Positions 12,504-37,653 of a DNA stretch of 63,944 nt are shown piece by piece. A program made the position numbers and the translations under genes. Origin of the DNA: Acanthaster planci (Eukaryota); contig NW_019091357.1 in NCBI RefSeq assembly GCF_001949145.1, forward strand, positions 810,671-874,614. Direction: 5' to 3'. Positions within the stretch are counted from its first letter, which is position 1. Every line of letters starts with the position of its first letter. The notes under the pieces were generated by a model that did no database searches, was not told the DNA's origin, and worked only from the letters and a program-made list of their open reading frames with translations.

Positions 12504-12630
12504 ATGGCGAAAAAGACGTACGATTTGCTGTTTAAATTACTACTAATCGGAGACTCTGGTGTCGGAAAGACGTGTATTCTCTTCAGATTTTCAGACGACA
12601 CATTTAATACAACATTTATATCTACGATAG
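12504..12630 (+). CDS. RAB10: Rab10 first coding exon 1a (canonical; P-loop GDSGVGKT, switch I ISTIG)
   Basis: ATG at 12504; 127 nt; ends ATA G|gtaagt (phase 1). Confidence 0.95.
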
Positions 12631-15600
12631 GTAAGTATTGCGCCTTTTTTTCTCTGGACCCAAACCGTCTGCTCAACCGTGTCAGTCATGTGAATGTGTG
12701 AAACCCATTTGTTTGTACGTAGGGCCTAATCGTGATGATTGATAATGATATACTCAACTCAACGGTCACTGTACATTGCTTTGGAGGGCCTATTCTGTAA
12801 AATATCTGGACTACTGTCAGTTGACTTTATCTGTCCTTAGAGAGTGCACTGCCTTCGTTATCAACTAATAATTTACAGACAGTCATTACTGACATGATGG
12901 ACATGCAGACTTGGTCAGAGACAAGACAATGTGACACTGTGTATGACTACTGACAGAATGCAAAAGATTCTCTGTGATTTGGGAAAGATTCAGTAAGAGT
13001 TCCCATCAGCATCTGGAATGTCTGGTCAGCATGTTCATGTTGAATTCGCAGTCAAACATAACAACAAACATAAGTTCTACCCCTCCATGTATTTTCGTGA
13101 AACTGTCAAAGATAAGTCCACACAGCTGGGCAAAAACCGACATTGCCTGTGAAAAGTTGGAGTTACAGTACAGGTCAGAATTTTAGCCGACACGCTAACA
13201 TGATCAGTGAACCTGACATGCTGTTCAATATACGCTTTGCGGTTTTTAACGTGCATTGCTAGTCCAATGTACGATAAGCCTGACCCCAGACCTCATTATC
13301 TCGGCAGGGCTTGTGACCGCAGACCGCAAAGGTGGCCGACAACGTGTAGTGAACCACTGCGCATGCAGGGCCGTTGCTCCAGCTTCGTGCATGGGTGTNN
13401 NNNNNNNNNNNNNNNNNNNNNNNNNNNNNNNNNNNNNNNNNNNNNNNNNNNNNNNNNNNNNNNNNNNNNNNNNNNNNNNNNNNNNNNNNNNNNNNNNNNN
13501 NNNTTCAACAAGGGCCTGGCTGTTCTGGGGTTTGCGTGTAGCGTGTGCAAGTTTATACTCGGCAGATCAGATTGCGGTGTCGGCGTTCTCTGTTATGCAG
13601 GGGTCAGCGTGTTTTGTGTTCGCGGTTACTTCCTTCCATGTCTGTTTGACTTGATACACGCTGACACACTAAGTGTGTCTGCGTGTCGGCTAAAATTCTG
13701 ACCTGTATCGTAGGTCACAACTCATAACTCATAAAACTGTTGCTAGGCCAAACGTTACTTATAAAACTCAAGAATCGCAGTGGACAGATTTGTTCCTCTC
13801 CCCACAGGTAGGCCAAGCAGAAAACCTGAAAGTCTGTGTTAAGATGCGTGTGCCTGTTGCAAAATGTGCAGTAGGCCTATTGTCCTTTACCCTAACAGTC
13901 CCAAATCCTCCAATTTCAATACGATTTTACATACCACCTTGGGGGTTAGGGTTTTAACGTATTCACAACTCCAAAACTAACAATATCAGTTGGTTTTTAA
14001 CCAAATTTGCAAATTTTGTGCCTTGTTGCTGAACATATGCATGGTATGTCCTATTGTTTTTCAGAATAATTTCTTCATTTGATAACTGATGAATTTTCAG
14101 GTAAAAAAAATTAAATCTTACACGTAGGTACGATAGAAATTGTTGTTGCAAAGTAGCTGTAGGCTACGGGGTCGATATCGTCAAGATCAAGATATGCCAA
14201 TAGGGTTGGAATCAAAAGTACAACTGTTAGTATGTTGATGCATAAACTGCTGCAGGGTATAATGCAGATGGTCTCATGTTAAATCATTCACCTGTGTGCT
14301 TATAATCGGTACATTCAGATTTGTGAATCTGGTATTTTGATGAATGTTTTAATACTGTGCAGTGAGAACTGATTTTATGAGGTGACAGATGCTGCCTTTA
14401 CCTGTATTACATAAATGTGAGATATCATTCTCATCTATACAATACCTCAATAAACCCTTGTAAATGTCCCATACTTTGTCATATAAGTAAGAACTTATTT
14501 ACTTCAGAATTAGTGCTGCAACTGAGGTTTCCTGTGTGCCCTGCAAATTTCTACTAATTATCTCACAGAACATTCAACTTTCTCTGCTTTACTTATCAGG
14601 GTCACAGATGAGTTCAAAAATTTCTTCATCTGTTTGAATAAGGCATGGTAGTTTTTATTCATGGTCTGCCATTCTTTGGGAAAAGCCTAGTGGAAAAGTC
14701 CTGTAGATAAAGTGTGACCACACAGGGTTCGCACACCTCCTGGAAAACCTGGAAAATCCTGGAATTTTATGCCCATCCTAGAAAGTCTGGAATATGCTTA
14801 ATTTTCAAAAGAAGTCATGGAAATTCCAGGATATTGCAGTAATGATTAAAAACTTTAAAATGAGACAAAAATGATCTTATAAACTGTGACCGAAAATTTA
14901 CCGCGGGCAATCCGTCCCCATGTACATTGTTGCTATTGTGTGGTGCAATGTATATTATTCACCATGCGTGGTCTATACAATCGAAGACACTCCCGCGCTG
15001 CACGTAACGCTGTGAGTGAGATAATATTTAGATGGTGCCCACAATTGATTCTTTCTATTTTGCATGCGTGGGTCACCAAGGATATCATTACTAAACTTTC
15101 TTGTCAAATTTTACCTTCGTTTTTTCTAGCTCCATGGTAAAGTATCTGTTGTGGATATAATTATGAAATTATTCTCTTTTAAATTGATGTACTTTATTTA
15201 GTACGCAATTAAATATTTCCAGTCATTATAACCTAATAAAGCTCAGTGTAAAAGTAAAACTTGTGACTGTGTCGAACCTTTTTCTTTAGCGTTGCATGGA
15301 CTAGGGAAAGTTTATTTTGTATGATGTCACTGTCAGAAAACTTGCCACGTCTTTGTCGCTGTGCTGCTCGATTTCTACACGTTGTTATGTTATAACTTCA
15401 CAATCTTTTATCGTATGGTCATGATGGTATTCATTGATTTAGTCAGGTTGGACACGCAATACAAGATGTATTCCAACCTGACTTGAGTCCTTGAAAAATC
15501 AAACTTGTGACCTTGAACATTCTGGAAAAGTCCTGGAATATTCTTTTCACAAGGATGTATGACCCCTGCCACACTTGAATACCACAGTGTACGTACATGT

Positions 15601-18600
15601 ACCAATAGTGTGGGGGCTAGATACTCTGTCTTGGGTAATGACGGTAGAATGTCTATTTTTTGGCATCCTGGCTGTGCTTAATGTGTTATGTTATATCATT
15701 AATGACAAGTGAGCAACAATCTACAGTACATGTACAAACATGTATGACGAGGATTCAGGTGTTGTTTAAAGGGTGTGATCACTACATGTAATACAATGTA
15801 CATGTACATGTCATTTTGGGAGATACATGTAATAATCACTAAAACTTCACTATGTTCAATGCAGCAGGCCTGAAACTCAGCACTGCTGCTGCTGCTATTT
15901 CAACTGTGACAGATGTACATTGTACATGTACCGTTACAGCTCAGTTAGTGATACCTTTTTTAAACATGCCGGAATTAGAATTCTTCCACATCAGAGAGGT
16001 ACCTTTTGACTGTAACCAAAACTTTTTTATGCTGGGTATTCATTTCAGAAACGTGATACAGTGAGAAAGGTCTCATTTGTTGCATGTTATTGCATTGGTA
16101 TGACAAGCTTCTCAATTTTGCCAAGGCAAACTTCTTAACTTACGGTACATGTATGGATGTGACATAATGACAAGGGTTTTACAGCACATCTGGGATGTTG
16201 CAGGGCTGGGATACTCACCAATCTTACCAAATCCCAGCAAATCAAAGGCTAATTTATTGATAGACACAAGATGAAATACATGTAGCTTTTGTTGGGGAAT
16301 GGTCTGCTGAGTTGCCATGAGTGAGTGCTAAACACTTTTACTCTTGTAGGGGACTGGATGTGCATCTTGGACAAGTTTAAAACATTTTTGTGAGGGATTA
16401 AATGTACAAATAATTATATAGCACTCAATACTCCTCGGCCTGTACCCCTTGAGAGCTTGCCTTGTTCCGTCACACACCTTGCGGTAGACTCTTTCCCTAA
16501 ATAGTTTGTAGAACTCATTGTGAATTTATTCGGATATATTGTTTTGTACACTCACATGACAAGAGCATTGTATTCTTGTGATCGTAATCATAATCAATCT
16601 GTGAATTAGTTTAGAGACATTGGAGTCCAGTTCGTTGGGTTGTGATGGGCCTGGTCTAAAGCGAGAGTCTTTGCTATTTCTATGTTCCCTTTGTCTGATG
16701 ACGTTGTTGCATTTAAATGAGCTTTTTATGTAGGACTGAGTCAATTTGAATAATTCACTTTTCGAATATTCAATCTTCAATTTCGGATAGCCAGATATTC
16801 GGTCACACCAACAAACCATTTACAAAATCATTTGCAAAAATGCATTCAATGGTACATTGTAATCACTATAACAGCTCACTTCTAGGACTATCTCCAGCCA
16901 TGATTAAGCAAGATTAAAGAGAAGAACAATACATGTCCTTGTCCTTCTTGCCTTGTTGAATGTTTCTATTCCTTTTAAATTTTTTAATGAATTAAGTTTT
17001 TACATTGTAGGACGTATTATTCTGTTGCTTTTCATTTCAATCTGCTTTGGAATAAACTTCCATTTTGCGATTTTTCTCATTTAATTAAAACAAAAAAATT
17101 TTCCCTTTTCATTAATTTTGCATTTGAATATTCGAGTTTAGAAAATAGTATTCGAATATATATTCGATAATCGATCGAATCAGCCCCTTTTTTTGTGTTG
17201 AGGTGGCAGTGTGGAGTTGTATGGTCTCCATATCTTTACCCAAAGTGTGCACAATATGGGCCCGATGGGTACCCCCCACATGTCAAATTCCTATACACAC
17301 ACAAGACTACACACAGAATTTCGTCTCTTTGCTTTGTGTGACTTCTCATGGTCAACATTAAACCACAGCTGTATCAGCTAAATGTCTGCTTGTAATTAAA
17401 TCCTTTTGAGGACCTCATGCAGAAAAGTCAGGTTGGTGTAGTGGCTCTTTCCTCACCTTCCACCTCTGCGAACCCGGGTTCGAATCCCACCGACTGGTAG
17501 GCCTGCATGTGGATTGGGTTTTTCAGTTCCTGCCTGATTCTGTGGGTTTCCTCGGAATATGTATCCTGGGTTTTCCTTCCATGTCTAAAACTGAACATCT
17601 TTTCGTCGTCTTTTTAACTGTCACTTCCTTGTGTAATTGTGACTTCCTTCTGTAATTGGTGCTAAATGCGCTGTTGGATGAACATGTACATAGATAAATA
17701 AGAGAGTCTTGTGCAACAGACAGTAAGGGTAGTGAATGCCAATTAAAATTGAATTGGATTATTCATTGTTATTGTTAAATCCTAGTACAAGTCCAGTTGT
17801 TGGGAGCTTCTGGAATTCTGGGCAGGGGTCACAAAAATAGGAGGTCAACCCCCAAGAGGGAAAATGTAGAAACACTGTTCACCGCTCTGGCTTTGTAGGT
17901 CAAAGGTCATCAGTCAAAAAGATTTGATGACATTAACACTGATTTACTAAAAAAAAAAAGGGAAAATTACCCTATGAACTGTGTCTCTTCAGCCTGAGGT
18001 CAAACTTCAACAAGTCACCATAGTTGAGTAAATAAATCGGGCCAACATTGGTTTGATTTTATTTAGATCCACCGCACATGTGTAGATATACAGTGTATGT
18101 ACATGGATTTGGATAGTTTATTTGTGTTGGCAAGGAATTCTGGACATTTTTTGTACATGTTCTCTTCAAGAGCAAGCACTGCTTCAGTCAGCTACTGCTC
18201 GTGTATGGTAGGCTGTTGGCTGGATGTTTCCTTGTCCGTGTACTCTGCCTGTTGATGCTTTCCAACCCTGTGTCCAGTGACTGTAAAAATTCAGGAAGGT
18301 GTGTCCAAGTAGGCAGTACTTTGTCACTCAATGGCCAGAGCCAGTCAGGTCAGTCTTGCTTGACCTGTTGTCGATGAGTGATGACATACAAAGGCATGCT
18401 TTATGAGGATAGCATGAACTTTGATTTCTCCTGCAAGCTGCTTCTCACCGGCGATTCTTCAGTTGGAAAGTCTTGCTTGCTTTTCAGATTTTGCAGTGAC
18501 TACTTTGAGTCATCATTCATTCCATCAATCGGTAAGTTTGACCTTGAAGTGGTTGTTCCTGGTATGCTTGCAAGGCAGTTGCAGATCACCTCAATGAGGC

Positions 18601-21600
18601 TTCATCTAAAGCTGATTAAAAGAGGGTCAATTCATGTCATTGATCTCTGAATCTGAGAAGTGGTATTGTTACCAGCAACTTGTCTCCTCTGTGATACTGA
18701 AGAAGGCAGAATATCATAGTGAATAAGGAAGAAAAAAATGAGAGAAAATAAAAGTAATAAACATTTGGATACAATACGGAGGTTGGGATGCATGTAGAAT
18801 GGAGCATAATAAGCAGTATTTGAAGCGTCTTTTTCTTTTATTTCTTGCCCTCCATGCATCTCATCGTGGTACTTCCTGGTACATTGTACATGTACCAGAA
18901 CGATAGCTGGCCAAACGCATGTACACCAGCATCACTGGTAACATGGCAGTACTGCAGGGATTTGTATTTCATTAGGAACGGGAACCAGCAGAGCCTAAGT
19001 CAACATGTAGAAATGCACAGACTGCTGCCGAGGATGCGTTGGGGACTGTTCAGTATGAGACACCTTGTCACGTACGTGTAAGACATAAGTCCATGTTGCC
19101 AGCATTGCAATGTGTGTAGATTGCTACACACCGTTTGGCTCTAACTGCCTGCACGATGATCACAGATGGGTACATAGGTAAGCTGTCTCATGAATTATGC
19201 ATAAATCTTCAAGGTCATTACCCCTCTTCCACCATCCAAGGTCATTTCTTGGATTTTTTGGAATAGGGGAATAAATTTGAGCTCGGCCAGTCTTAAACCT
19301 TTGTCCATTCTCCGTATCCGGTCTTACACAAAGCACTTGTTTCAGAGTGGTCAAACACACATTTACATGTACATTGTATTCCAATGCATAGATATTTTGA
19401 GTCCGTGGTCAAAACAAAAAATGTATAAATTCCAATGATTTTGTTCAAGAATTTTACTTCATTTTTTTGAACAACACTCTAGCCATGTTATGGGATGCTC
19501 CTCTCTCACGTAGAACAAAACACTCCATTTATATCATGTACATGGGAGATTGGCATGTGCACTGCATGAGGTGGTGCACGTCATGTGATGGGGTCTCAAC
19601 CAATAGGAATGTCTTTATTTATATCTGTTCATCCGACAGCACATTTAGTGCCAGATACAGGGTGAAGTGATCATTAAGAAGACAATCATGAAATGTTCCG
19701 TTTTAGAGGTGGGAGGAAAACCCAGGATGAATATTCCATAGAAAACCCACAGAGTCAGGCAGGGACTGAAAACCTACTCCACATGCTGACCAAGGTGGGA
19801 TTTGAACCTGGGTCACAGAGATGGAAGGCGAAGAAAGAGCCACTACATATACACCAACCTGACTCCCCTAAACTGCTAAACTGTATGATATATTAACCCT
19901 AACAGTCCTCAATCCTCCAACAGGTGAAGGATTGAGGACTGTTAGGGTTAATGATTTTTAGAACACCTAAATGATTGTATCTTGCATACATGTACATGTA
20001 AATCCGTGCCCTAAACGGACAGAAATTACAGTTGCCATTTGGGGTGTGCCTTCTATCCTCTAAACTTTTATGGCAGGGAGAAGTGAGCTTTAGCACGTGA
20101 GGTGGAACCTAAACCCATTTGTTCTGGATTTTGATTACCATTAGGCAAGGCCATGTAGACCTCGGTGTTGTTGCATGATCCATCATTAGCACACATTGTT
20201 ATTTGGTGCTACAATATCATGCAACCTTCAGAATAGTCCATGAAATACATTAATATTGCTATGACGCAGAGTAAACATCTAAGTCTCTCTCAAATGACCT
20301 CACATTCTACAGATTGCCATGGGAATGGGCTTTTTTACATCGATTTTCTACAGATTGCCATGGGAATGGGCTTTTTTACATCGATTTTCTACAGATTGCC
20401 ATGGGAATGGGCTTTTTTTACTTCGATTTTCTACAAATTGCTATGGGAATCAGCTTTTTTTTACATCGATTTTCTACAGATTGCCATGGGAATGGGCTTT
20501 TTTTACATCAATTTTCTACAGATTGCCATGGGAATTGGGCTTTTTTTTACTTCGATTTTCTACAGATTGCCATGGGAATGGGCTTTTTTTACGTCGATTT
20601 CCATGACATGCATCGGCTGTGCCGTACTTCGAACATATTTTGATCAGCCCATGGATGAGTTTAGAACATTTGGCACACTGCGAGCACACACACCTGTTTG
20701 CATTATATACGCAGTTGGAATTTGCCTCCAAAGATGGCGTCCAGTGAGAAAGGTACATACATGTACAGTGTACATGAACTTGGCAGACTGGAAACATACA
20801 TTCACATATATGTACCGGATACTTAACCAACACCACGGTACATGTACGTGTACATGTAACCTTGATTCAGGTTGTATTATGATACGGAGTCAAGGTACAT
20901 GTCGTGTCGTGTCGTGTTTTGAATTGCGTCCGAATTCAGCGTCTGGGACACATTCTCATCCAGCCAATTGCAACTACAATGTATATGATGTCAAAGGAAC
21001 GTTGTTTGTGATAACAAAATGTAATCAGTCTCTTTTGTGTGCAGGTGTGGTTCTCATAAGAACCTGGGGCTTGACGTTTTGAACAGCTTGCTCTGTTCGT
21101 CTTAACGAGATGTTGCACACTGAACTAACGAATCGTAGTAACTGCGAGCAAATATGTGTCAATGTGTACCCGCACTTTGTCAAATTAAAAATGAGCTGCT
21201 GGGAGTAATTTGTAAAAATGTATCGGTTGAAATGGCATTCTATCGTTATTTTTCTCCAACATCTCAGGTTGCCAAAAAGAATAATTTCTCAGAGAGTTAA
21301 AAGCGCTGTAACTTTCTCCACAGTAGTTTTGTCACTAAATTTTTGGATCGCTGTAAATAATGAACTATACATGTACCCGTACCTTTAATCTTAACCAACA
21401 AGATTCCATGTGATGTACACGTACACTAAACCTTGGGTTATGGTTGATCCCAACCTGTGATAAACCAATTGTACTGAAGCATGTGCCATGAGTCATGTGA
21501 TATGAAGTACTGTACTGCTTTAGCAGAATTATACTCTTGTATTATGACAAACTCATAAACACAAGATTGAATATACATGTACGTGTAGCTTAGCCACGAG

Positions 21601-24600
21601 CGTACTAAGAGTCCAAACTTCAGCAAGTGACCCCTCTATCTCAGTCAGCACCACTGTGTGATAATACATGTGTGTCTAACTGTATAACGGATTTTCCCTT
21701 GGCCAAAACTGTCTGAGTGCTTTGTCAGTATCAAGTAAATATGCAAGTACCTGCTTTGCAAACCCATAGTGGATTGTTCTGTAACAAGTGTACATTGGAC
21801 TGTGTCATTGTGCACGCACTCATATCAAAATGTGTTATATTTTTATACATTTGCACACTGCTTTATGAGTCTAGGTTTCATAGTGTCAAAACTGCCTCAG
21901 TTACATGTGTACACACTTTTGTTGTTTTTGTTTCATTCTAGAAACAGAAAGGTCATTCAGAATGAAACTGCCTTGTAACTGTCTTTGTTCTAGAGCTTGA
22001 AATAAAAAGCAAACCCTTTTTAGTGCACACACTGCCTATCAGTTGGCTGTTTTTAGCCTGTACATATTAGCTTTGCTTGTTGGATGTTTGGTTTCTCCAA
22101 TTATGTCCGGCCGAACCTATGACTGGCTGTTTCAGTTGATTTTAATCGGCGATTCAGGAGTCGGCAAGACCTGCGTTCTGTTGAGATTTGTCAATGATGA
22201 ATTCAAAACTTCCTACATATCAACAATCGGTAAGTTTGGTATAAATCGACACCAACAAATGTGTACATTGTCAACTGTCCTGCGTCATGTTGGTTGTTAT
22301 TCATCAGTATCTGTGTTTGTAGTCACAAATTCTGCACATACAAATATTATTGTAGCTATTATAGGAAAAACAAATCACAAAATCCCATTTTTGAAGACAT
22401 TTTGCCCTCTCCAAATAGAACAGGCCATAACATATTTTGGAATTGCGTGACTTATTGCCCCATTTTTGTCAGCGAGTCACATATCTAATTTGATGGATGT
22501 ATTACCCATTGATACCTGTACGTGTGTAGCTGTACTGTACATGACAAGATCTCAATGTGCAAAGAGATACATTTTAATTCACATATGTACATGTACATGT
22601 ATGTAGGGGTGGTGTTCATGACAAACACTGAAGAGAAATGATTATTTCTTACCTCCTCTGACCATCGCCCTGGTTGGAAAATGAGAAAAGTGTGCATATA
22701 CATGACAGTATGGGGACTCGTGTGTTTCGGGCATATGAACTTGCCAACATAATACCCATTGGTATAAGGAAGTTCTCATCAACTTGTCATTTGGCAACCC
22801 ATTGAGGAAAAGCTAGAGTGACATGTACCACTGAAGACTCGGAGATAAGAGGAAAGCCGTTCTGAAGAGACTGCTATTATTTCATTTTTTTTTTGGCAAT
22901 AGATGCATGTGTCCATCCTCCACACTACTGGTTGCTGGCCAGTTGCCAATGATAAACATCAAATAAAAGGCCAATCGTAAATGTCTTCTTGAAGCTCCAG
23001 TTGGACAGTCACAATGTGAAACAAATTGGAGAGTGTAACGGTTACATTTCAAAGTGTACCCACAGTGCCCCTCCTGCGCCCTTCAAAATCCTCCAGGAGA
23101 GTTTGGAGGAATTTGTAGCATTACAAAAGATAGATCCTGGCCACTGGTTGTGATTTGATGCCCCAGGAAAGTTGCAGTGTGCTAATGACTTCTGACAGTT
23201 CACCGGGGAAGAATACAAGAGGGTTAAAGAAGGGAATAGGGCCATCCAGATCCGAAAATAATCACATTTTTCCTTCTGTAATTAATGTTGATAGAGGAGG
23301 GGCTGTTTTTTCCTGAAAATCTCCATGTACATTGATCTCATGATCTAACGTGAATCGATCTGTCACAGAAAGTGGCAAGAGGTTTAAATGAGATTTCTGG
23401 CTCACTGAGTACAGAATAACACTGGTCTTGATGATTGAATACCCTAACCTGACATTGGTACAAGCCCAGCATAAGAACCACCTGTCAGTAGAAGGAATTG
23501 GCGAATTCAGTCCGAAAATACTGCACTAAACTACCCGGTAGGTATGTTGATAGACCTGAAGGCAGTGTCTTAGTCATGATAGAGATCGCAGAATCAATGA
23601 AATTTCTTTTAGCAGTCACTGGAAATAAATACATCATGTACATGTACACAGAGCATGTTGGTCATGCACATTACAGGGCATGCAAGACCATGATTATGCC
23701 AAAAGGAAAAAAATCTGTTATCAGAAGCATACTACGGCATGTGTTAAAGTACATATAATGTAGGTAATGTACATAAAAGCTTCCTTCATGAATTTGTGTC
23801 GTCGACAGCGGTAGCCATATGCTTGTGCATACATGTACATGTACAATGCTGTGTGATCACATGGTTTCCCCTTCCGATTTGGTTGCTACATGTATATCTA
23901 TTAATATTATAATGCGTAGGAAGGATTTTGAAAGCACGGTTCATTCTTTGCTATTTCTGCTTCCAGGCTTCTCTTTCAGTATCCTTTCAAAGCTTTTCAT
24001 TTTGGAGTTTTGGTCTTGTGCTCCATTTAGTCCAGTTTGTTCAAGGAAACACGGACGTGTTTCAGATTTCAGAATCTATTGCCGATTTGTCATCAATGGA
24101 AACTTCTACCACAGAGCTGTCCACTTCTGTATTGGTTGCCAGTGCTGCATTTGTTCTGCAGGCACTTGCCAAAAGCCCTCAAATGAGTTATAAAATTCAA
24201 GTTTGAATGCCAAGTTCAGACCATCGTAATGTTTGTGTGTATATCGGTACACACAGCACTGTTTGAATACTTCAGAGGTCTGATTTGTGGACAGGGTTGG
24301 TTTGTTTGTCCTTTCAAGATGCTGGCTTTGGATATTACCAACTGTCTGTGTGGACGCCATGTATTAGGCAAGTACGTGTATCAAACATGATGCTTGCTTC
24401 ACATTGTCTAGAAACAAGAACCCCCATGCCAAAAACGAATGGTAGACCCCACTTGAAAATGGTAATACCCCATAACCTTCTAGTTCTAGTTCTTTTCTCA
24501 GTTGGGACTTAAAAAGAGTTTGTTTCCAAATACTTGACTGCATTCACTCTGGCTATTGGCATTGTATTCCTATCCTTTATACATACAGCATGCCCCACTC

Positions 24601-27600: not shown

Positions 27601-30600
27601 TACTGCTGCTAATGTGGAGATGTTCTGAAGTTAGCAGAGCACATCAAAAAGCAGGAATCATGCCTTGGGATTGGAAGTTCAAGTTAGCTATTTTGGCACA
27701 GTATCACGCTAGCATGCAGTGGAAGTGGCATGATCCCACCTGTTGGTAGGCACCGGTGGCAGTTTTGATGGATCAGAGATCTACCCAAGTGGGCCTGGAA
27801 CGTGATGCCATTGAAGCCGTGATTCAAGTTGAGGAGTGCAGCTTTGAATGTGAACTCTCACTGACTTGTGTTAGATTTGAACCACCTGTGGTGCTGTGTC
27901 AGTTACATGTACATGTAGAAAATTTCCAAAGAAAAGACTCAGTAGGGATTCGAACCCACAATAAGCTGTTATTAGATGTGTTTTTTTATAAAAGTTTCCA
28001 TGTACTCCCAGTGCTAGTTATTGGAACTCAACTTGTTCGGGCCAGAAACATTTTTCTGTGGTGACCTTATAAATTTGTCTCCTGAACTCAACCAGGATGC
28101 CATCGAAAAAAGGCAAAAAGAAAGGGAGTTTATCCTCTAATCGTAGCCAAAACTCTGTGAACAGCCGGCCGGTGTCCACTGTGTCTGCCGTCAGTTACAA
28201 TCGGGAATCCGTGCAGTTGGGCGGGCAGCAGTACGGACGCTCCTTTTTCGATCTGATCTTGAAATACTTGCTCATTGGGGATTCGGAGGTGGGGAAGTCG
28301 TCACTTGTGCTACGCTTCTCCGACAACAATTTTAGAGAAAACTTTGTTTCGACTATAGGTGAGTTTATAACGTACCGGCAGCAACTTGGAAACATACCTC
28401 CATCAGTGCCTGTTGTTGACATGTCCATACTGGTTCATGTGTACATGAATGTACACTGCACTACATGTTCATGTGCATGGGTAATTCCAGACATTAGGGG
28501 TTCATTTTTTTGGTGTCCCTGTCACATCTGACTTGTGATTTTGTAAGTTCAGAACACATTTTCTAATTTCCAAGAATGATGAATGAATGCATATTACCTG
28601 CCAAACAAATACATTTAGTAACAGTTTGGAATCAATTCTAGTGATACTTCAATGTCAAATAACAAAGGGCAGATATAACAGGGACACAGAAATGTCACAC
28701 ATTTAGACCCTTAATTTCTGAAATTACCCATTATTTTATTTATACTGGTATTGTTTCTGAAAAGAATTCTTAGTACGCTGTGCAGGTTTTGTGTTTCAAA
28801 GTTATTTAGAGCAATAAATGCTGATGCTATTGAATTGAACACGCACAGTACTCACTGGTACTTGTGAGCATTGTACATGTTGTACATACATGTACCTGTC
28901 TGGCATTATATCGGTACCTGCTCTGTGCATGTGTACATTAATTAATTAATATGCATTGTGCAGGTGCATGCGAATACATATATGTCTGTATTTCGTTGAG
29001 TTTTGTGGATTTTCGCTCAACAACATTATGTATACATAATTGTACATGTACAGTTACGTATTCACATCCATCCAGCGTGCAAGTTTTCCTCGGATCAGCT
29101 GATCTCAGTTTTCACTTCACACCTGTGCTGTTGAAAATTGAAAAAACACTGTGCAAAGCCTCGTAAAGATTGGAATTTCCTTGTTTTTTGTCAAAATCCA
29201 AGTTCATGCTTGATACATAAATACAACTGTAAGAATTGTAACGCTGTTGATTATTCCACATTCTGTANNNNNNNNNNNNNNNNNNNNNNNNNNNNNNNNN
29301 NNNNNNNNNNNNNNNNNNNNNNNNNNNNNNNNNNNNNNNNNNNNNNNNNNNNNNNNNNNNNNNNNNNNNNNNNNNNNNNNNNNNNNNNNNNNNNNNNNNN
29401 NNNNNNNNNNNNNNNNNNNNNNNNNNNNNNNNNNNNNNNNNNNNNNNNNNNNNNNNNNNNNNNNNNNNNNNNNNNNNNNNNNNNNNNNNNNNNNNNNNNN
29501 NNNNNNNNNNNNNNNNNNNNNNNNNNNNNNNNNNNNNNNNNNNNNNNNNNNNNNNNNNNNNNNNNNNNNNNNNNNNNNNNNNNNNNNNNNNNNNNNNNNN
29601 NNNNNNNNNNNNNNNNNNNNNNNNNNNNNNNNNNNNNNNNNNNNNNNNNNNNNNNNNNNNNNNNNNNNNNNNNNNNNNNNNNNNNNNNNNNNNNNNNNNN
29701 NNNNNNNNNNNNNNNNNNNNNNNNNNNNNNNNNNNNNNNNNNNNNNNNNNNNNNNNNNNNNNNNNNNNNNNNNNNNNNNNNNNNNNNNNNNNNNNNNAGA
29801 CACAAGATGATTGAAAATAAATTGATCAACCGGAGCGGTCCAGGTGACGCATCCCACGGTCAAGGACACTATTCAGTGGCGTCCATTCACCCAGACCTAC
29901 CCGTACAGTACATATCAAAAGCACATGATTATGCACCCAGATGAAATACGGTGTATACGATCACTGGATCAGTGTTGGCATGGGACTTACACACTGTATG
30001 CCGTAGGGTCATATGCAAACAAACAAACAAACAAACAAACTTTTCCACAGAAATTTCATCATCAGTTGCGACCCACCTGCTGCACCAGTATATTTGAACT
30101 AAACCTGTGACGACAGGAATATCCAGAGAGCCCTTCCTGACCCTGAAAGCATTATTATAAAAGTAGGACAATCGCCCACACTTAAAGTTTCTCCAGGGAC
30201 GACAAGTCCGTCCAGCTCCGATGTACGGCAGTTTATCAATCACAATTTACAGCCACACAGCCGTATGTCTCGCATACAAAATGTACCAACCTCTCGCGTC
30301 AGTTTAGTCACATGGGCTGTTCCAGGATTCTGGTTATACCCCCTTTGTATAATTTCAAGTTCGCCTTTGCTGAGTACTTTCCCGATATAATTAATATTCA
30401 GTAAATCATGAAATAATAAATCAAACAAATAACATCCCAGGTTTCGAATGCATTGATTTGTACGGGTCTCTGGCACCACAAGTAGAGTAGTATGACCAAA
30501 AAGGGAGTCGCCAACGGGCTCTCAGACGAATGGCACTGTAAAAACTTTTCCTAAGAAACACGTACATGCGGTCACGTTCCAAACTAAAATTGCCTCCAGT

Positions 30601-33600
30601 TGCCCAAAAGTCCATCTCCCCACATCATGTTAACACGAATTTAAAGAACTCAGATTTCATTCAAAGTTAACATGCAGAAGGCTTACATGACTACCGGTAG
30701 TTGACAATCTTGCCTGGACGCTTGCATCTCACACCTTTTTCTCCTACATCACTGAATGCTTTATGGGTGGACTTTTTGAGCCATGCCATGTGCTCAAGTA
30801 CATGTACATGCTAACAAATTTCAACTTGCCTCAAGTCTCTGGGGGTCAGAAATGCTAGTGGCCACTCAGTTATGAGGGTCAGTTCTCTGCTGGTCATTGG
30901 AGAGATGCCTGCAGGGGGGGCAGGGACTCAGTTTTGACTATCACCTCTTTAAAAGCCAATCAGTGTCAATTATTAGGACCTTGTAAATCAAAGGCTTCTA
31001 CTTAATATGTTAGAGGCCTGTTTTCTTTTGATGACAAGCATGCAGTTTTATTGCTTGCATAGTGACTCTACCCAATTACTGGTACATGAAAACAAGTTGT
31101 CCCCTTTTATCAGAAGCTGTTTGATTTATCTGCTGGCTGTACATTTGACTAAGGCAGGTCAATCTGTTTGCTCCATTGTGTAACCTATTTTAATAACAAT
31201 GCCAGTGGGCAGTTGGATTTCACTGGCACCCTTATTTTAATTGTTTGAAATACATTGCTATACAATTGATAAGTGATCATTGTGTTTGCTTGACACCCTT
31301 CAGTCAGCAATAAATCCTTGATGTAGCAACAGTGATGCTTGATGAATCAGCAAATAATTGTGTGATTTATCGATTATCAAAGTGATAGAGATTTGATAGG
31401 AGGAAATGTTTGTGCATGCCATGTGAACAATGTATGGTACAAGGCGCAGTAATGGGAACTGGTTGGTAAAATCTTTGAACTTTTTAGAGCAAGAAACTTG
31501 AAATTCTGCCTTAGATATACAGTATTAATTAATCGAAAACACACTTTTTGTGGAGTTTTCTCTGACTTTTTAAACAGTTTTCTACTCTTGGTTTCAAACT
31601 CAAACTTGCCTGTCTCTCACGAGGGTCGAAGAATGAATTATGAAACATTCCCGTCAGCAAAGAAAGCCATCCAAGAGAAAAAAAATTTCTACATGAGAAT
31701 GCCATATTTCAGAAGTACCATAACCATAAAATAATTCTTGAGAGGCCACCCATGCAGTCCCTCTGCACAGCCCATGGTGGGTACTGTTCATCCTTCTTAC
31801 ACAAGCTGGACTCATTTGAATAATCTTTTGACAGGATCACTCAGTCCAGTGGAGAAACTCAATGGGCCTGTGAAGCAATTGGAATGGAAACTTCTACTGG
31901 AGTCAGTGTGAGGGGCAGTAGGACACTTCATTTGTGGCCCTGGGAGTGAAAGGCATTTTGGCCGACCATGGGCAGACTGTGCACCTCTAGTCATTGTCCC
32001 GGTTGTGATGTCACGGTTGTAGCAAGGCTGTCTGTTTCCTACCTGCATGGTCTGATGAATTGAATTACATGTATCAATGGTCGCCAGTTGTATGTATATC
32101 AGTACCCATTGCTCTCTGTATTAGGTGCCATATTCTGTCTAACTTTGGGATGTGTACATTTGTACCTGAGCCCTTCTGGTGAAAGCTGTTTGCCGTAAGT
32201 CTGCATACATGACAGAGAAAGGACTATGTGACCCTAAGTTGGATATCCAAGGGGTATTCAATTGAGTGTATAGTACTTCACGTTGGCCTAATTGTTCAAC
32301 ATGGTAATTGTCCTTGTTTTCTCTTGACTGTTTGCTGAATTGAAAAAGTTGTCTGAAAGAGTATAGAGACCACAGACTGAACTTGCTACTACCAGCTTGG
32401 CCGACTTGTCATGTTGTGTTGGACTGGTCAATTTAGGTGGACGAAGGATCAATTTCTGGGCTGATTTGTTGATCGACAAGGAAGGAGAAATTTGGAAGAC
32501 TCATCAGCGTGGACTTTTTTTTGCCATATCACTTCCTTACCACTTCATGTACCGGTAAGGTAGAACTGTTTACATTGCAAGTGGAGAAGGGAGTTTCATT
32601 TAGATGGCAATTCCAAAATAATTTGTATGTCTGGACTGAAAACGTAACCCAACACAATTCAGAAGTGGATTGGAATTTTCGGAGAGTGGGTGCTGTGGAC
32701 GTGCCATGGGCAGGCATGGAGAGAAATGGAGGACTCAATCGCCACTTGTATGATATGCTCCTGAAGCTGATCGTGGTGGGCGACAGCTTTGTGGGCAAGA
32801 GTGCCATCGTTGGCCGATTTGTGAACATGATTGACCCCACCCAGCGACAGTTTCACTCAACGATTGGTAAGCCTTGCTAGTACAGTGCCAGAGCTGTGCA
32901 CGTATACATGTAGCTCAACAGAGAGCAACAGTTGTCCTTGTAGATTGTCATTGTGGCCACAGAATTTAAAGTTTGAAACAGTGTACAGATGCAGCTTTAC
33001 ATGAGCCAGTCTGTTATCGATAGGTTTACTTACATGTCCATAATCCACAGTCCACTTCTCAATATTACAGGGTTACCACTTCTCATTCACAGATGTGACC
33101 TGTCACCACAAAATGACCTGAAAGTCAGTATTTTCAGAAAGCAAGATATTAGTATTTTTGAATTCAGCAGAAAGAGATCTTTTAAATGGTACATGTACAT
33201 GGAACACTTTAAGTAAAGTATATAAAGTGACAATGTGACATTATTTTGGCAGCTTTACGTCTTTGTTCCTGACATTTTTTTTTCAACATTTCTGACTGGG
33301 CACGAATAATGCTGTCATCAAAAATGCTGAAAAAATGATATTTTGATATTATGATCCTGCGAAATACATGCATTTGGAATTAAATGGGAGACGGGTACTC
33401 ATTCCAAATAATTCAAAACCCAAATATTGACCACTTCAAGATGACTTTGAACCCTCAAAATAAAAACGAGTGGGATTCATCCTTACTCTCATTTTGTTGT
33501 GACAGGTCACAAATACCGGTAAAATTTGTGCTGGATAGTCACAAGTATACCTGAATTTAGAACTCCAACATTTCCAATTTTGTTAGGGATTAGACTAACA

Positions 33601-36600
33601 ATGGAGTAACAGTATTATTATCCCTAACCCTCCTCAATCCTTCACTTGTTGGAGGACTGAGGAGGGTTAGGGTTAGTGTATTCCAACAGACTTTGATGGA
33701 TGTACATGTACTGTACATGTACATCAAAGTGGTGTCGGAATTTGTTAGTACCTTGCACCATGCAGCATGTGGTTTTGCACCGTGTTCAACCACAGCGGTT
33801 TCTCCTGACTGAACTTGGACATTACAAATCTAGATCATCACACCCTGTGTACTGTGTTAGGGTCCTGTTAAGCTGTCCCTTTATGTCACCAAGCCTTGGC
33901 ATACCTGTAGGTGTCTAGGTCAAATGTGAAGGATTGGAGGAAGTGACATTTCAAAGCAATTGAAGAAAATTTGACCCACACTGACAACTTCGCCATATGA
34001 ATGCACGTGATACATGCACACTTCAGTAGTTACATTGTCATTTGTCACATGACTCATGAACAGATCAGAAATCTCATCCCTTGTGAGCACTATCGTATGT
34101 GACTTAAAGTCTGAATGCTTTGCTAAAGTTTAGTACTCGTTCAAACGTGTACGGATTGTGGTTTGATTTACAACATGGTGACTGTTTACTTTGTAAATAA
34201 CTGTATGGGCTGGGCCCTTTGCCTTCATTTGTACATGTATGTGTCATCATTCTGGGTAGGAGTGGTTGCTAGGACTTGAAGTGGGAAGACTTTGTGATGT
34301 CGCAGCCAGTTTTTCTGCTGTCATTAAATTTCTGAGAAAGTCTTTTGAAGGCAAGCCTTCCTGGTGGCCAAATATTTGTGATGAAAATACATGGAGTTTT
34401 TATGGAGTGATGTGAATTTTCGTTGAACTTTATGTTGACTTACACGTACATGTAATGAAATCTTGTTATTGGATTGTATTTTTAAACCTTGAGTGATTTT
34501 AGCAATCGAGTTTCTACACAATGTACATGTACCTTATGCCGACTGCTCTCTAAAAGCCAGTGGGAAAGAAGAAAATGATAGGACTCGAACCCCTTACCAT
34601 CCAACTTATTGTGCGCTGGTCTCATCCACAGAGCTCATGGGACTTGACCCGCCTGCTCAAATCCAGTGTACATGTTGCAGCCGATATGAGAATCAATTCT
34701 ATTCATAAATCAATTCCTTTGATTGTTCTCTCTTTGGTCTCATTTCCTAGGTATTGATTTCAAAATCAAGACAGTTGAACTACAAGGTAAGAAGATCAAA
34801 CTTCAGATATGGGACACGGCGGGCCAGGAGCGATTCCATACGATCACCACCTCCTACTACCGGGGAGCCATGGGTATTATGCTGGTGTATGACATCACGC
34901 AAGAGAAGACCTTTGACAATATCGCCAAGTGGCTACGCAACATTCAAGAGGTACCGTATGTCTTGTAAAAATGAATGAAGGTCCCTTTGGAACTGCAACT
35001 GGCAAAATTTTATTTCTTTCTACTTGCTATTTGGCTAACTCTACTCAGAACGTGAAATGGCCGTGCAAAATCTCGCCCCTACATAAAAATTAAAACTTAA
35101 AATGGAAAGATGAAAGCCCTTACTTACTCATTCATGCATGTACATGTGTCATCCATCTTGCAATCAGTCTCGCCTGGTTTTGAGTCTTGCATATTAAATT
35201 AATGCACATGATAAAGGAACCTTGTTAATCAAATTGGTTTGATTTGTGTTTTAACGAGGGGTTCCTTTTTCAAAACTGAAACAAGACAAGGAAGTGATGG
35301 GAAAGTTCAGCATACATGTACAGTGCATGAATGCTCAGCGGTTTGGCCATGGACTGCGGCTGACAGCATGCTGTGCCTGAATTGTGGCATTCCGCATTCG
35401 AACACAATTTTCTCATCAAAATAAATCCAACCAATATTGATCTCATGCTGTGAATGGTGTGAGTAGACTGCAGATAGTAATGATATAACCAACCTGCTGT
35501 ACCCTGGCATTTCAGCTTGAGCCAGTCACCCTTCTGCTACATTTATGACACTGTGTGTTTTGATGGGTTCTTTACTTATTCATCATGAGAGGGGTATGAC
35601 ATAGGCCTTAAGGGTTTATTTTCCACTTTAGTACACATGCCTCTACTGGTAAATCTCTGCCAGGTTGATACGATTGAGAGAGACTAGTATTTCTGAAATT
35701 GCCAGAAATTCAGTTTTGTTTTGTGAATACACATTCCAGTAAATGATTTTTCCAGTTCATTGAAAGTTGTTCTTTCACATAAAATCTCCTAGAAATGTTG
35801 AAGTAAGCTCATATAAAGCCTATGCGTGGCTGCCCCAATGATGTCCCATCTAGGCTGCCCCAATGATGTCCCATCTAGGCTGCCCCAATGATGTCCCATC
35901 TAGGCTGCCCCAATGATGTCCCATCTAGGCTGCCCCAATGATGTCCCATCTAGGCTGCCCCAATGATGTCCCATCTAGGCTGCCCCAATGATGTCCCACC
36001 TAGGCTGCCCCAATGATGTCCCACCTAGGCTGCCTCAATGATGTCCCATCTAGGCTGCCCCAATGATGTCCCATCTAGGCTGCCCCAATGATGTCCCATC
36101 TAGGCTGCCCCAATGATGTCCCACCTAGGCTGCCCCAATGATGTCCCATCTAGGCTGCCCCAATGATGTCCCATCTAGGCTGCCCCAATGATGTCCCATC
36201 TACTAGTTCAAATTTTGAGACAGTACTGTAAATTTGATCTTGGCTTTATTAATAATTTGCCGTCCCCTGATTGGTTGGCGCCCTCATCTGGTTACTTCAC
36301 CCAGCCAAAGACATGCCTTTGCTTTCCGTTTTCTGCAGCATGCAAATGAAGATGTAGAAAAGATGCTATTGGGAAACAAGTGTGACATGGAGGACAAGCG
36401 AATGATCAGCAAAGAGAGGGGCGAGAACGTGAGTAGCCAATGAATAGTTGAGAACCTTGGAGGTCACTGAGGGTCAGCGGACAAAGGTCATCAGAGAAGA
36501 GTTTCATTTAATCCTACTACTGCTGACCTTGAAAGGCGCCATTCTTTCACACCCCCAACAAAGAGAGCCAAAGAGTGATCGCGTGCAAGCATTGACAAGC

Positions 36601-37653
36601 ACCTACATGTACAAAGACTGCCGTACAACATGGCCTTGATATGGTGTTGGAAATAAGGTGCTGGGGTTGTTGACATGTATGTTTGGTGTTTTGGCAAAGC
36701 ACAATCTTTTGTGCTGTTAGAATGTAAAAGGGTTTAGTTAAGGACCGTTACATGAGTACATGTGAACATAAATTCACAAAGACTTCACAGTGAGGCTCAT
36801 CCATTTTCAGATGTCTGCAAACTTGTTTTCATTTTCAGATTGCGAGGGAGAACGGCATCAAATTCCTAGAAACCAGTGCCAAGGCAAACGTGAATGTTGA
36901 AAAGGCTTTCATGACACTCGCAGAGGACATCCTCAAGAAGGCAAGACCCTTTTTCCTCTGTTCCTCGTGGTTATCCCCAAGTTTCATGCCAGGAGGCATC
37001 AGCGGATCATTTTGCCTCTTGATGATATTGTTCGCAGCAAACTGGCTCCAGTCTGCCTGAAATCTTGACTTTCTAAAACAATGAGATGCTACTGCCACAT
37101 TTCATTTCTAAGTGGGACACCACAAGTGCTGACGTTTAAGTTATTTATACGTGATGCTCATGACAGTCCTGTGTGAAACACTAATTTATGTGAACTTAAA
37201 GAAATATCAGTGTGATATTTTGTTCCTCAAAAACAGCTCCTGATGTCAAATCAATCTTTTCAGCATATACAGCTGTTACCACTGTCTTGTCTCGTCCAGT
37301 GTGCATAATATGTGATAGACATGTCAATATTTGGGGCCTGTTTGTTTCACGTGTATCTGGATCGCAATCAGTGATCCCAAAGGCTGGTTCGCTCTATCCG
37401 TTAGGGGGGTTCTGATGACAGTGATCCAGTGTCGGATCGCTCACTGCGATCCAAAGCCACGTGAAACAAACAGGTCCATTCTTTCTGCCTAGTTGTCAAT
37501 TTTGTTTGAATATGTTTGAATATTCCCCAACTAGGCTGACATTTCTTCTCTTTCCGCCTTCCACAGTACCCACAGAAAGACCCAGCAAGTGGAACAAGCG
37601 GGAACATCAAACCAACGGGGGACGACGGCAGCCAGTCAAGAAAATGCTGTTAA
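12504..37653 (+). CDS. RAB10: Rab10 small GTPase, canonical isoform (201 aa). Exons: 12504-12630, 34751-34950, 36339-36428, 36839-36940, 37567-37653
   Basis: Spliced product: [108 protein letters not shown]../[34 protein letters not shown]1-G5 motifs, Rab10-type [11 protein letters not shown] and HANEDVE, and a terminal CC prenylation motif are all present. Exon lengths 127+200+90+102+87 keep the frame. Confidence 0.95.
13171..13705. mobile_element. Non-autonomous TIR element with TA flanks (Tc1/mariner-like), spanning an N-gap
   Basis: Perfect 25-bp TIR CAGGTCAGAATTTTAGCCGACACGC / GCGTGTCGGCTAAAATTCTGACCTG, with TA on both sides. Confidence 0.8.
13399..13503. other. Assembly gap
   Basis: Run of N inside the TIR element at 13171-13705. 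Confidence 1.
13886..13955. mobile_element. piggyBac-like mini-MITE (~70 bp)
   Basis: CCCTAACAGTCCCAAA..GATTTTACATAC..GGGGGTTAGGG; closely similar to 44358-44427. Confidence 0.6.
14723..15568. mobile_element. Non-autonomous DNA transposon with CAGGG termini and a 5-bp TSD (hAT-like)
   Basis: Ends are CAGGGTTCGCAC / GTATGACCCCTG, with subterminal CCTGGAA repeats at both ends. CCACA is duplicated at 14718-14722 and 15569-15573. The superfamily is inferred. Confidence 0.7.
17426..17600 (+). mobile_element. tRNA-derived SINE copy
   Basis: A-box-like TGGTGTAGTGG and B-box GGTTCGAATCCC, followed by a GTGGGTTT..GGTTTTCCTTCCA core. Homologous to the copy at 19693-19864. Confidence 0.75.
18381..18531 (+). 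CDS. Putative alternative first exon 1b of Rab10: [51 protein letters not shown]
   Basis: Open frame with an in-frame TGA just upstream (18375). Contains a Rab P-loop and ends ATC G|gtaagt in phase 1 at the homologous position. No matching exon 2 is seen before 34751. Confidence 0.8.
19693..19864 (-). mobile_element. tRNA-derived SINE copy (same family, inverted)
   Basis: The reverse complement aligns along its length with 17426-17600 (AGTCAGGTTGGTG..GTAGTGGCTCTTTC..GGTTCAAATCCCACC..CCTGCCTGACTCTGTGGGTTT..CTAAAAC.GAACAT). Confidence 0.75.
19893..19951. mobile_element. piggyBac-like mini-MITE forming a perfect hairpin
   Basis: 24-bp perfect inverted repeat TTAACCCTAACAGTCCTCAATCCT with an 11-nt spacer. 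Confidence 0.7.
20305..20601. repeat. Minisatellite, ~41-44 bp unit x ~7
   Basis: Unit TTCTACAGATTGCCATGGGAATGGGC(T)nACATCGATT, with a variable-length T run. Confidence 0.95.
22103..22229 (+). CDS. Putative alternative first exon 1c of Rab10: [43 protein letters not shown]
   Basis: Same 127-nt coding length as exon 1a, with 27/38 identity over the core by hand alignment. Ends ATC G|gtaagt, phase 1. Confidence 0.85.
28097..28358 (+). CDS. Putative alternative first coding exon 1d of Rab10 with a basic/Ser-rich N-terminal extension: [49 protein letters not shown]
   Basis: 262-nt open frame (87 codons + 1 nt) ending ATA G|gtgagt, phase 1. A possible acceptor (..caaccag|G ATG) lies directly before the start codon. 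Confidence 0.83.
29268..29797. other. Assembly gap
   Basis: Run of N between exons 1d and 1e. Confidence 1.
32716..32866 (+). CDS. Putative alternative first coding exon 1e of Rab10: [51 protein letters not shown]
   Basis: 151-nt open frame with YDxLxKL..GDSxVGKS and STIG; ends ATT G|gtaagc, phase 1. The start codon is uncertain because the frame is open further upstream. Confidence 0.78.
33094..33511. mobile_element. TIR element with TGTGACC termini
   Basis: TGTGACCTGTCACCACAAAATGA ... TCATTTTGTTGTGACAGGTCACA. Confidence 0.65.
33618..33676. mobile_element. piggyBac-like mini-MITE (opposite orientation to 19893-19951)
   Basis: CCCTAACCCTCCTCAATCCT-tcacttgttgg-AGGACTGAGGAGGGTTAGGG; the spacer is nearly the reverse complement of that in the 19893 copy. 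Confidence 0.6.
34751..37653 (+). CDS. RAB10: Rab10 constant region (exons 2-5: interswitch, switch II, NKxD, SAK, hypervariable tail, CC)
   Basis: The acceptor catttcctag|GT ATT GAT TTC completes the phase-1 Gly codon. It is the only WDTAGQE-containing exon seen between 12.5 kb and 47 kb. Confidence 0.93.
35828..36202. repeat. Minisatellite, 25-bp unit x 15
   Basis: Unit GGCTGCCCCAATGATGTCCCATCTA, nearly invariant; lies in Rab10 intron 2. Confidence 0.97.
37334..37477. mobile_element. Palindromic MITE with GGGCC-type termini (PIF/Harbinger-like) in the last Rab10 intron
   Basis: GGCCTGTTTGTTTCACGTG ... CACGTGAAACAAACAGGTCC; a second copy lies at 38900-39036. Confidence 0.6.

Follow-up and report, generated by a model that had tools for sequence, protein, structure and literature searches.

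Rab diversity normally grows through whole-gene duplication. In the clustered protocadherins and in UGT1A a variable exon encodes whole domains, and the protocadherins combine stochastic promoter choice with a shared promoter element. In what follows, PMC identifiers denote cited papers. PMC9741552 groups the protocadherin and UGT1A clusters with the N-terminal homologous substitutions, of which PMC8373072 catalogues 39 in human. RAB37 is among them (event 171, last common ancestor given as Bilateria): its two isoforms have different N-termini and a homologous exon running from P-loop to switch I, there is a Drosophila orthologue, and the differing surface patch has been suggested to allow different partners. 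RAB10 has no entry in the human table of PMC8373072. The locus described here is the Rab10 gene of the starfish Acanthaster planci, and lies in a 63,944-nucleotide stretch of contig NW_019091357.1 (the window). It contains five tandem homologous 5' exons, 1a to 1e, and a shared exon 2. With a probability of about 0.7, we interpret these as likely to have separate promoters and to give one major canonical form (1a) beside four minor ones, which are predicted to cycle nucleotide and bind effectors differently. A first-pass annotation of the window knew of no Rab gene with this architecture; that view has to be given up, as human RAB37 swaps two homologous P-loop/switch-I exons (PMC8373072).

The gene consists of the following parts, with coordinates counted from the first letter of the window:

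12504-12630, + strand: exon 1a coding part, with canonical Rab10 N-terminus, P-loop and switch I (RefSeq isoform X4, XP_022089805.1)
18381-18531, + strand: exon 1b coding part, with S19, P40 and Ser in place of switch-I Thr41 (RefSeq isoform X3, XP_022089798.1)
19156-19177, + strand: short unrelated first exon of 7 codons, no P-loop (RefSeq isoform X6, XP_022089820.1)
22103-22229, + strand: exon 1c coding part, with intact P-loop, K11Q and D31N (RefSeq isoform X5, XP_022089813.1)
28097-28358, + strand: exon 1d coding part, with 45 extra N-terminal residues, a basic start and G19E (RefSeq isoform X1, XP_022089788.1)
32716-32866, + strand: exon 1e coding part, with G19F, no F34 and two extra residues before switch I (RefSeq isoform X2, XP_022089793.1)
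34751-34950, + strand: constant exon 2, with interswitch, WDTAGQ and switch II including T73
36339-36428, + strand: constant exon 3, with NKCD
36839-36940, + strand: constant exon 4, with ETSAK and a GC donor
37567-37653, + strand: constant exon 5 coding part, with hypervariable tail and CC end

Exons 1a-1e each start with ATG, are open, have a length of 3n+1 (127, 151, 127, 262 and 151 nucleotides (nt)), carry GDSxVGK[T/S] and have the 3' boundary G/GT(A/G)AG; their donors agree with the splice consensus at 6-8 of 9 positions. Successive copies are separated by 5750, 3571, 5867 and 4357 nt, and core identity to 1a is 22/38 for 1b, 27/38 for 1c, 22/38 for 1d and 20/38 for 1e. The first-pass annotation had these right: five stop-free exons on one strand at these positions, with motif and phase-1 donor, spaced 3.6-5.9 kb apart (gaps of 3571-5867 nt), and matching 1a at 22-27 of 38 core residues for 1b-1d and at fewer for 1e. 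It had also claimed a single set of exons 2-5, and tblastn finds no second exon 2-5 piece between 12504 and 34751. A hidden Markov model (HMM) of the five exons gives the copies 74-85 bits; its next score, 27 bits, belongs to exon 1 of a downstream Rab gene, everything else stays below 2, and no sixth copy was found within the array. The locus is thus a tandem of homologous exons within one gene, with more than three variable 5' exons on shared constant exons. Self-blastn detected no upstream DNA common to the copies; no motif search for a promoter element was made. Two gaps of N lie inside the array (13399-13503 and 29268-29797, nominally 105 and 530 nt) and could be taken to favour an assembly artefact, or five genes whose own 3' exons were lost in the gaps. 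This explanation is largely refuted and extremely improbable: reads and contigs link each copy to the same exon 2 sequence, and in six other species the constant part is the same in the variant and the canonical forms.

The assignment to Rab10 agrees with the protein comparisons. From the N-terminus through strand 1, P-loop and helix 1 to I42 in switch I, the protein is encoded by the variable exon; G43-F46, W63, Q68, T73, Y78, the CC tail and the G motifs further downstream come from the constant part. PF00071 is matched at full length by the isoforms of all five exons, the variable exon spanning only about the first 32 of its 162 positions, and isoform X6 begins at profile position 32. The best PDB matches for the 1e isoform are human Rab10 (2.5e-87) and then Rab8A (3e-77), and the 1a core is identical to hemichordate and amphioxus Rab10 at 36 of 37 positions. 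Canonical N-terminus, switch-II T73 and C-terminal CC occur as a full set in the 1a isoform only. All six RefSeq proteins named 'ras-related protein Rab-10-like isoform X1-X6' equal exon joins of the window letter for letter, with X4, X3, X5, X1 and X2 corresponding to 1a, 1b, 1c, 1d and 1e, each followed by exons 2-5; exon 1e itself matches an Acanthaster planci RefSeq protein at 100%. We do not count these isoforms as independent, because the records probably derive from the same assembly.

All five exon-1 copies are spliced in RNA to the single exon 2. We used three raw RNA runs of 2026 (X12, X16 and X19; 18-24% of each was read) and the contig set X1 on positions 17700-34990. Placement at likeness 97 gave 13 joints, all of them listed; an earlier placement at likeness 88 was dominated by repeats. 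GT..AG joints to exon 2 were found in 5, 2 and 0 reads of runs X12, X16 and X19 for 1b, in 8, 0 and 0 for 1c, in 6, 2 and 23 for 1d, and in 3, 21 and 9 for 1e. Contig set X1 contains the 1b, 1c and 1d joints at depths of 7.8, 4.36 and 5.26 and no 1e joint; the latter was also seen in run X15 (3 reads) and in contig set X4 (depth 44.6). For 1a, the consensus of loose ends before exon 2 is the 3' end of 1a (46, 72 and 73 reads in runs X12, X16 and X19). Joints to exon 2 were thus seen in 3, 2, 4 and 3 of 4 runs for 1b, 1c, 1d and 1e, and 1a in all three raw-read runs. The share of 1a in the exon 2 junction reads is 68-74%, bearing in mind that 1a was counted via loose ends and 1b-1e via joints, and that the two may be counted not quite alike. 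Exon 2 itself is joined to exon 3 in 105, 67 and 144 reads of runs X12, X15 and X16. The first-pass annotation had held that acceptor 34751 would fit every copy and had proposed a search for the five junctions in RNA; joints or loose ends do link every copy to exon 2, and 12630 to 34751 is not the only junction in use. Each copy joins exon 2 directly, one copy per transcript, with no copy-to-copy joint among 1b-1e in the 13 joints. Although the X6 donor (19156-19177) is good, its joint is absent from all 13 (0 of 4 runs).

Junction contigs are colinear with the genome for 184-461 nt upstream of the ATG and have no loose 5' part; they start at 18197 (1b), 21871 (1c), 27762 (1d) and 32255 (1e), the remainder being exon 2 overlap. 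Five molecules in run X12 begin at 21870, upstream of 1c. These observations fit 1b-1e as first exons. The three runs use 1b-1e in different proportions: none of 20,000 permutations reached the observed value, for reads and distinct starts alike. As no tissue label is attached to the runs, which stem from two studies, this is a run-to-run difference and cannot be read as tissue specificity. CpG profiles do not clearly mark the copies. An acceptor-like site at 21942 was rejected: joined to 1a it would give a stop, it lies inside the colinear 1c contig, and no joint is listed for it. The leaders at 27468-28010 (1d) and 32142-32691 (1e) show allelic differences in the reads and, among the rows listed, none fall in coding parts; exon 2 has two allelic differences listed, both silent. 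Short dispersed repeats at 19888-20004 and 33614-33725 attract many reads. The GC donor of exon 4, at 36940-36942, is used, its joint to exon 5 being present in RNA reads.

Between copies, the proportion of synonymous differences (pS) is 0.63-0.97 and that of nonsynonymous differences (pN) 0.16-0.48. pS exceeds pN significantly in 9 of 10 copy pairs (the exception is 1b-1e, p = 0.12) and in 5 of the 6 pairs without 1a; compared with 1a, pS and pN are 0.86 and 0.26 for 1b and 0.89 and 0.16 for 1c. Of 200,000 copies simulated under neutrality, 4 still had an intact frame, motifs and donor after 0.75 changes per site, and 102 after 0.5. Synonymous sites are saturated or nearly so and the amino acids are held, which shows long constraint and is not proof of present function. 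The earlier argument for selection over decay is upheld by the excess of pS over pN, by the simulation and by the finding that no copy is disabled. Of the wider first-pass inference, one gene with five alternative 5' exons on a constant region stands on the RNA joints to exon 2 and on the comparison of pS with pN; promoter choice and altered regulatory surfaces remain at the level of prediction.

The variant exons are not confined to Acanthaster. Patiria miniata and Asterias rubens (RefSeq isoforms X1-X3) have 1a-, 1d- and 1e-type forms; Asterias amurensis has 1d and 1e types, and its 1a record is identical to that of Asterias rubens. The 1d orthologues in Patiria, the two Asterias species and Amphiura are identical at 30-33 of 37 positions, isoform X1 of Amphiura filiformis matching 1d at 30/37 and 1a at 19/37. 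Diadema X1 and Apostichopus PIK37720.1 have divergent exons with Y19 and a longer loop. For 7 species there is more than one record, and within each of them the constant part does not vary. Exon trees were built from 42-43 columns, leaving out near-identical canonical rows, X6 and, in some trees, 1b and the downstream gene. They support a 1e clade of starfish, Diadema and Apostichopus with 97/98, and the same clade with Diadema as its only member from outside the starfish with 100/99. On these alignments and trees 1d is conserved in other starfish and a brittle star, and 1e in starfish and a sea urchin and probably in a sea cucumber. Conservation across species therefore extends to 1a, 1d and 1e; 1b and 1c are unseen among the proteins fetched. 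Echinoderm classes split in the early Palaeozoic, and at least one duplication probably predates the split of sea urchins, sea cucumbers and starfish.

Used as a query against 1.84 billion representatives, 1d returned 749 matches. Among the best 150 of these, P0238, P0242 and P0247 are clearly 1d-type open reading frames (ORFs), which stop resembling 1d at the same I-G point, as expected of the same intron. P0277 and P0323 are short unnamed ORFs, at present unplaced, that end in [IV]-G and have the 1d signature FRENF[IL]ST, P0323 also having the GDSYVGKS motif of 1e; both may represent variant exons of further lineages. The start of 1d (28097-28130) is a Lys-rich stretch that is kept in Patiria and Asterias and not in Amphiura, and could add a membrane- or nucleus-targeting signal. 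Outside the echinoderms, 10 outgroup clusters have canonical exon 1 in 85 of 88 scorable members (12 of 100 were unscorable), and none of the 88 has a homologous variant, a weak negative because divergent isoforms can cluster elsewhere. Crinoid records give isoform numbers only, X6 and X4 for the canonical form, and a search of the ESM Atlas returned generic Ras clusters only.

The copies might exist for their promoters alone, with proteins that act like 1a and changes that are tolerated drift of the G domain. The variation in usage between runs is compatible with this, as are the retention of G16, D17, G21, K22, S/T23 and S/T41 in all five copies and the fact that the residues at position 19 are tolerated by other Rabs. 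However, 118 of 135 proteins, in a set biased to 1a, are identical to canonical exon 1 at 33-37/37 positions, so a drift of 11-18 residues is not tolerated there, and the derived states are themselves conserved: position 19 is E or Q in 5/5 named 1d records and F or Y in 7/7 1e-type records. We consider a split in expression only to be unlikely.

Predictions about function rest on the location of the variable residues. In human Rab10, bMERB effectors are contacted by Y6, D7, L9, K11, D31 and S40, and K3/K4 face an acidic patch (PMC5026484). The N-terminus sets specificity, and affinity for Rab1 rose five-fold when four N-terminal residues were swapped (PMC5026484). Further contacts, made by switch II and the aromatic triad (PMC5026484, PMC7442826), belong to the constant part here. 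The contact changes are K3S, K4M, Y6F, L9S, D31S and S40P in 1b, K3G, K4R, K11Q and D31N in 1c, K3R, K4S, Y6F and L9I in 1d, and K3R, K4H and D31N in 1e. As both the G1 loop and several bMERB-contact residues lie in this exon, altered binding of effectors of the Mical/EHBP type and a shifted effector preference are predicted for all variants.

The nucleotide site is also affected. Rab10 G19, F34 and T41 match Ras G13, F28 and T35 in the KRAS register. Loss of Ras F28 leads to fast nucleotide cycling. G19 is replaced by S in 1b, by E/Q in the 1d group and by F/Y in the 1e group, 1e has no F34, and 1b has S41. In KRAS G13D, GDP exchange is about 14 times and GTP exchange about 9 times faster than in the wild type (PMC13536840). 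By analogy, faster and less guanine nucleotide exchange factor (GEF)-dependent loading is predicted for 1e, and perhaps for 1d. A bolder version, which we hold only tentatively and think rather less probable than its contrary, is that promoter-selected front halves of Rab10 have been kept since before the echinoderm classes split, and that 1e (and 1d) would be self-loading, GEF-independent forms with their own effector range, a normal tail and the LRRK2 site. If this were true, a cell would set the kinetics of one trafficking GTPase through promoter choice. Alternatively, the variants, chiefly 1e, could bind nucleotide poorly and, instead of working as active switches, modulate canonical Rab10 in a natural dominant-negative or GEF-trapping manner. 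The absence of F34, the bulky residue 19 and the two extra residues before switch I of 1e would suit such a role, as would the P-loop-less isoform X6 listed by RefSeq and the prenylation site common to all forms. Against it, GxxxxGKS and the Mg-binding Thr41 are kept in 1e of four starfish, Diadema and Apostichopus, which suggests selected nucleotide and Mg binding, and the X6 joint was not seen in the 4 runs; we regard this as quite improbable. The 1e isoform was modelled twice with AlphaFold2, from 30 and from 120 rows and with no 1a control, at a mean predicted local distance difference test score (pLDDT) of 59.0 and 67.6. In these models the exon-1 part has pLDDT of about 35-55 and no first strand, and the constant switch II is drawn as a strand. 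They are too poor to count as evidence either way.

Several points weigh against our interpretation of five promoter-driven Rab10 forms. The likely separate promoters are suggested by colinear 5' parts, but contigs break at branches, and there are 201 loose ends beyond those listed. As the stretches examined do not include 1a, a copy may still be entered by splicing from 1a or from an upstream exon held in common. The variants are minor, at 0-22% each, 1b and 1c have low counts, with 1-6 distinct starts, and the RNA-covered leaders hold 3-17 ATGs, which calls for caution on translation; the 1b-1e proteins are predicted. In the trees, Apostichopus alone groups with 1e at 89/95 on a long branch, its record being a GenBank gene model, and the 1d clade has a support of 82/86 and, with Amphiura, of no more than 82/80, and dissolves in 2 of 4 trees. 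Unrelated natural Rabs have a residue other than Gly at the G13 position (P0240, P0241 and P0365) and can carry E or Q there; the G13D analogy may therefore overstate the effect. Finally, no 1b or 1c orthologue was found among the proteins fetched, the genomes of the relatives being outside the search. This last point, the totals of 7 and 8 junction reads (nearly all from one run), and the changes of T41 to S and S40 to P in 1b would be explained if only 1a, 1d and 1e worked and 1b and 1c were lineage-limited decaying copies with leaky transcripts. Yet both exons are open and have strong donors despite saturated synonymous sites compared with 1a, both are present as contigs in a second study (contig set X1), and in run X12 they are as common as 1d, making their decay very unlikely.

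The scenario that we favour, a five-promoter Rab10 gene, would then run as follows. Exon 1 was probably duplicated repeatedly, together with upstream DNA, in the echinoderm lineage; 1a would have kept the housekeeping role, and the other copies would have diverged. Promoter choice would now yield Rab10 forms that share switch II and the prenylated tail but probably differ in nucleotide cycling and effector binding. One of Rab10's most invariant exons has been copied four times within the gene, and two derived copies are held across echinoderm lineages. As tail and switch II are fixed in these natural chimeras, the role of N-terminus, P-loop and switch I in cycle, effectors and location becomes directly testable. 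A knock-down or antibody directed at echinoderm Rab10 would affect several proteins together.

The array is flanked by two other genes, and its introns contain tandem repeats at 20305-20600 and 35828-36202. About 10 kb downstream there is a second, divergent Rab gene, which the first-pass annotation had missed together with the X6 first exon at 19156-19177:

47400/47556-52474, + strand: second, divergent Rab gene, with the exon 1 HMM match at 48057
48150 (end of first exon), 51261-51466, 51625-51714, 51928-52032 and about 52364-52474, + strand: exons of the second Rab gene

Its product carries a long extension at the N-terminus and terminates in CNCS, its introns fall at the four protein positions where Rab10 has them, and the closest solved structures to its exon 2 are Rab8A/Rab1; the gene is probably an old whole-gene tandem copy. 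Directly upstream of exon 1a lies the 3' part of a protein kinase gene (PF00069, about 3900-8000, + strand), which we take to resemble MAK/ICK.

How does this locus compare with known systems? The RefSeq models list the same isoforms; they are automatic, and silent on paralogy, cross-class conservation and P-loop changes. Literature searches on Rab10 first exons and echinoderm isoforms, which do not extend to subscription papers and bioRxiv supplements, showed no description of the array among the papers listed. Clustered protocadherins and UGT1A also have tandem homologous 5' exons, shared 3' exons and unequal use (PMC9741552, PMC8373072). Unlike in those clusters, the variable exon of Rab10 covers no whole domain but about 42 residues at the start of a single G domain, and one copy (1a) dominates. 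Small GTPase isoforms from homologous exon swaps are also known in RAB6A/RAB6A', RAB28, KRAS4A/4B and CDC42 (PMC8373072); RAB6A swaps switch II and the others the C-terminal tail, whereas Rab10 keeps both and varies P-loop and switch I. The closest parallel is RAB37, likewise a Rab gene with homologous P-loop/switch-I exons on one constant body. RAB37 has two copies, in contrast to the five of Rab10, and its exon is described as 'internal', with 37 residues, no start codon and IGxF included, whereas exon 1 of Rab10 runs from ATG to I42. At the position of Ras G13, Gly is retained in both RAB37 forms and replaced in Rab10 1b, 1d and 1e. As RAB37 and Rab10 belong to different subfamilies, the two systems would have had independent origins. 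The kind of event and the RefSeq isoforms are therefore known, and what is new is that a near-invariant Rab10 exon occurs as an array of five, that this array is old in part, and that P-loop changes have become fixed in it. Taken together, RAB37 and Rab10 suggest that segment swapping is a repeated route in Rabs.

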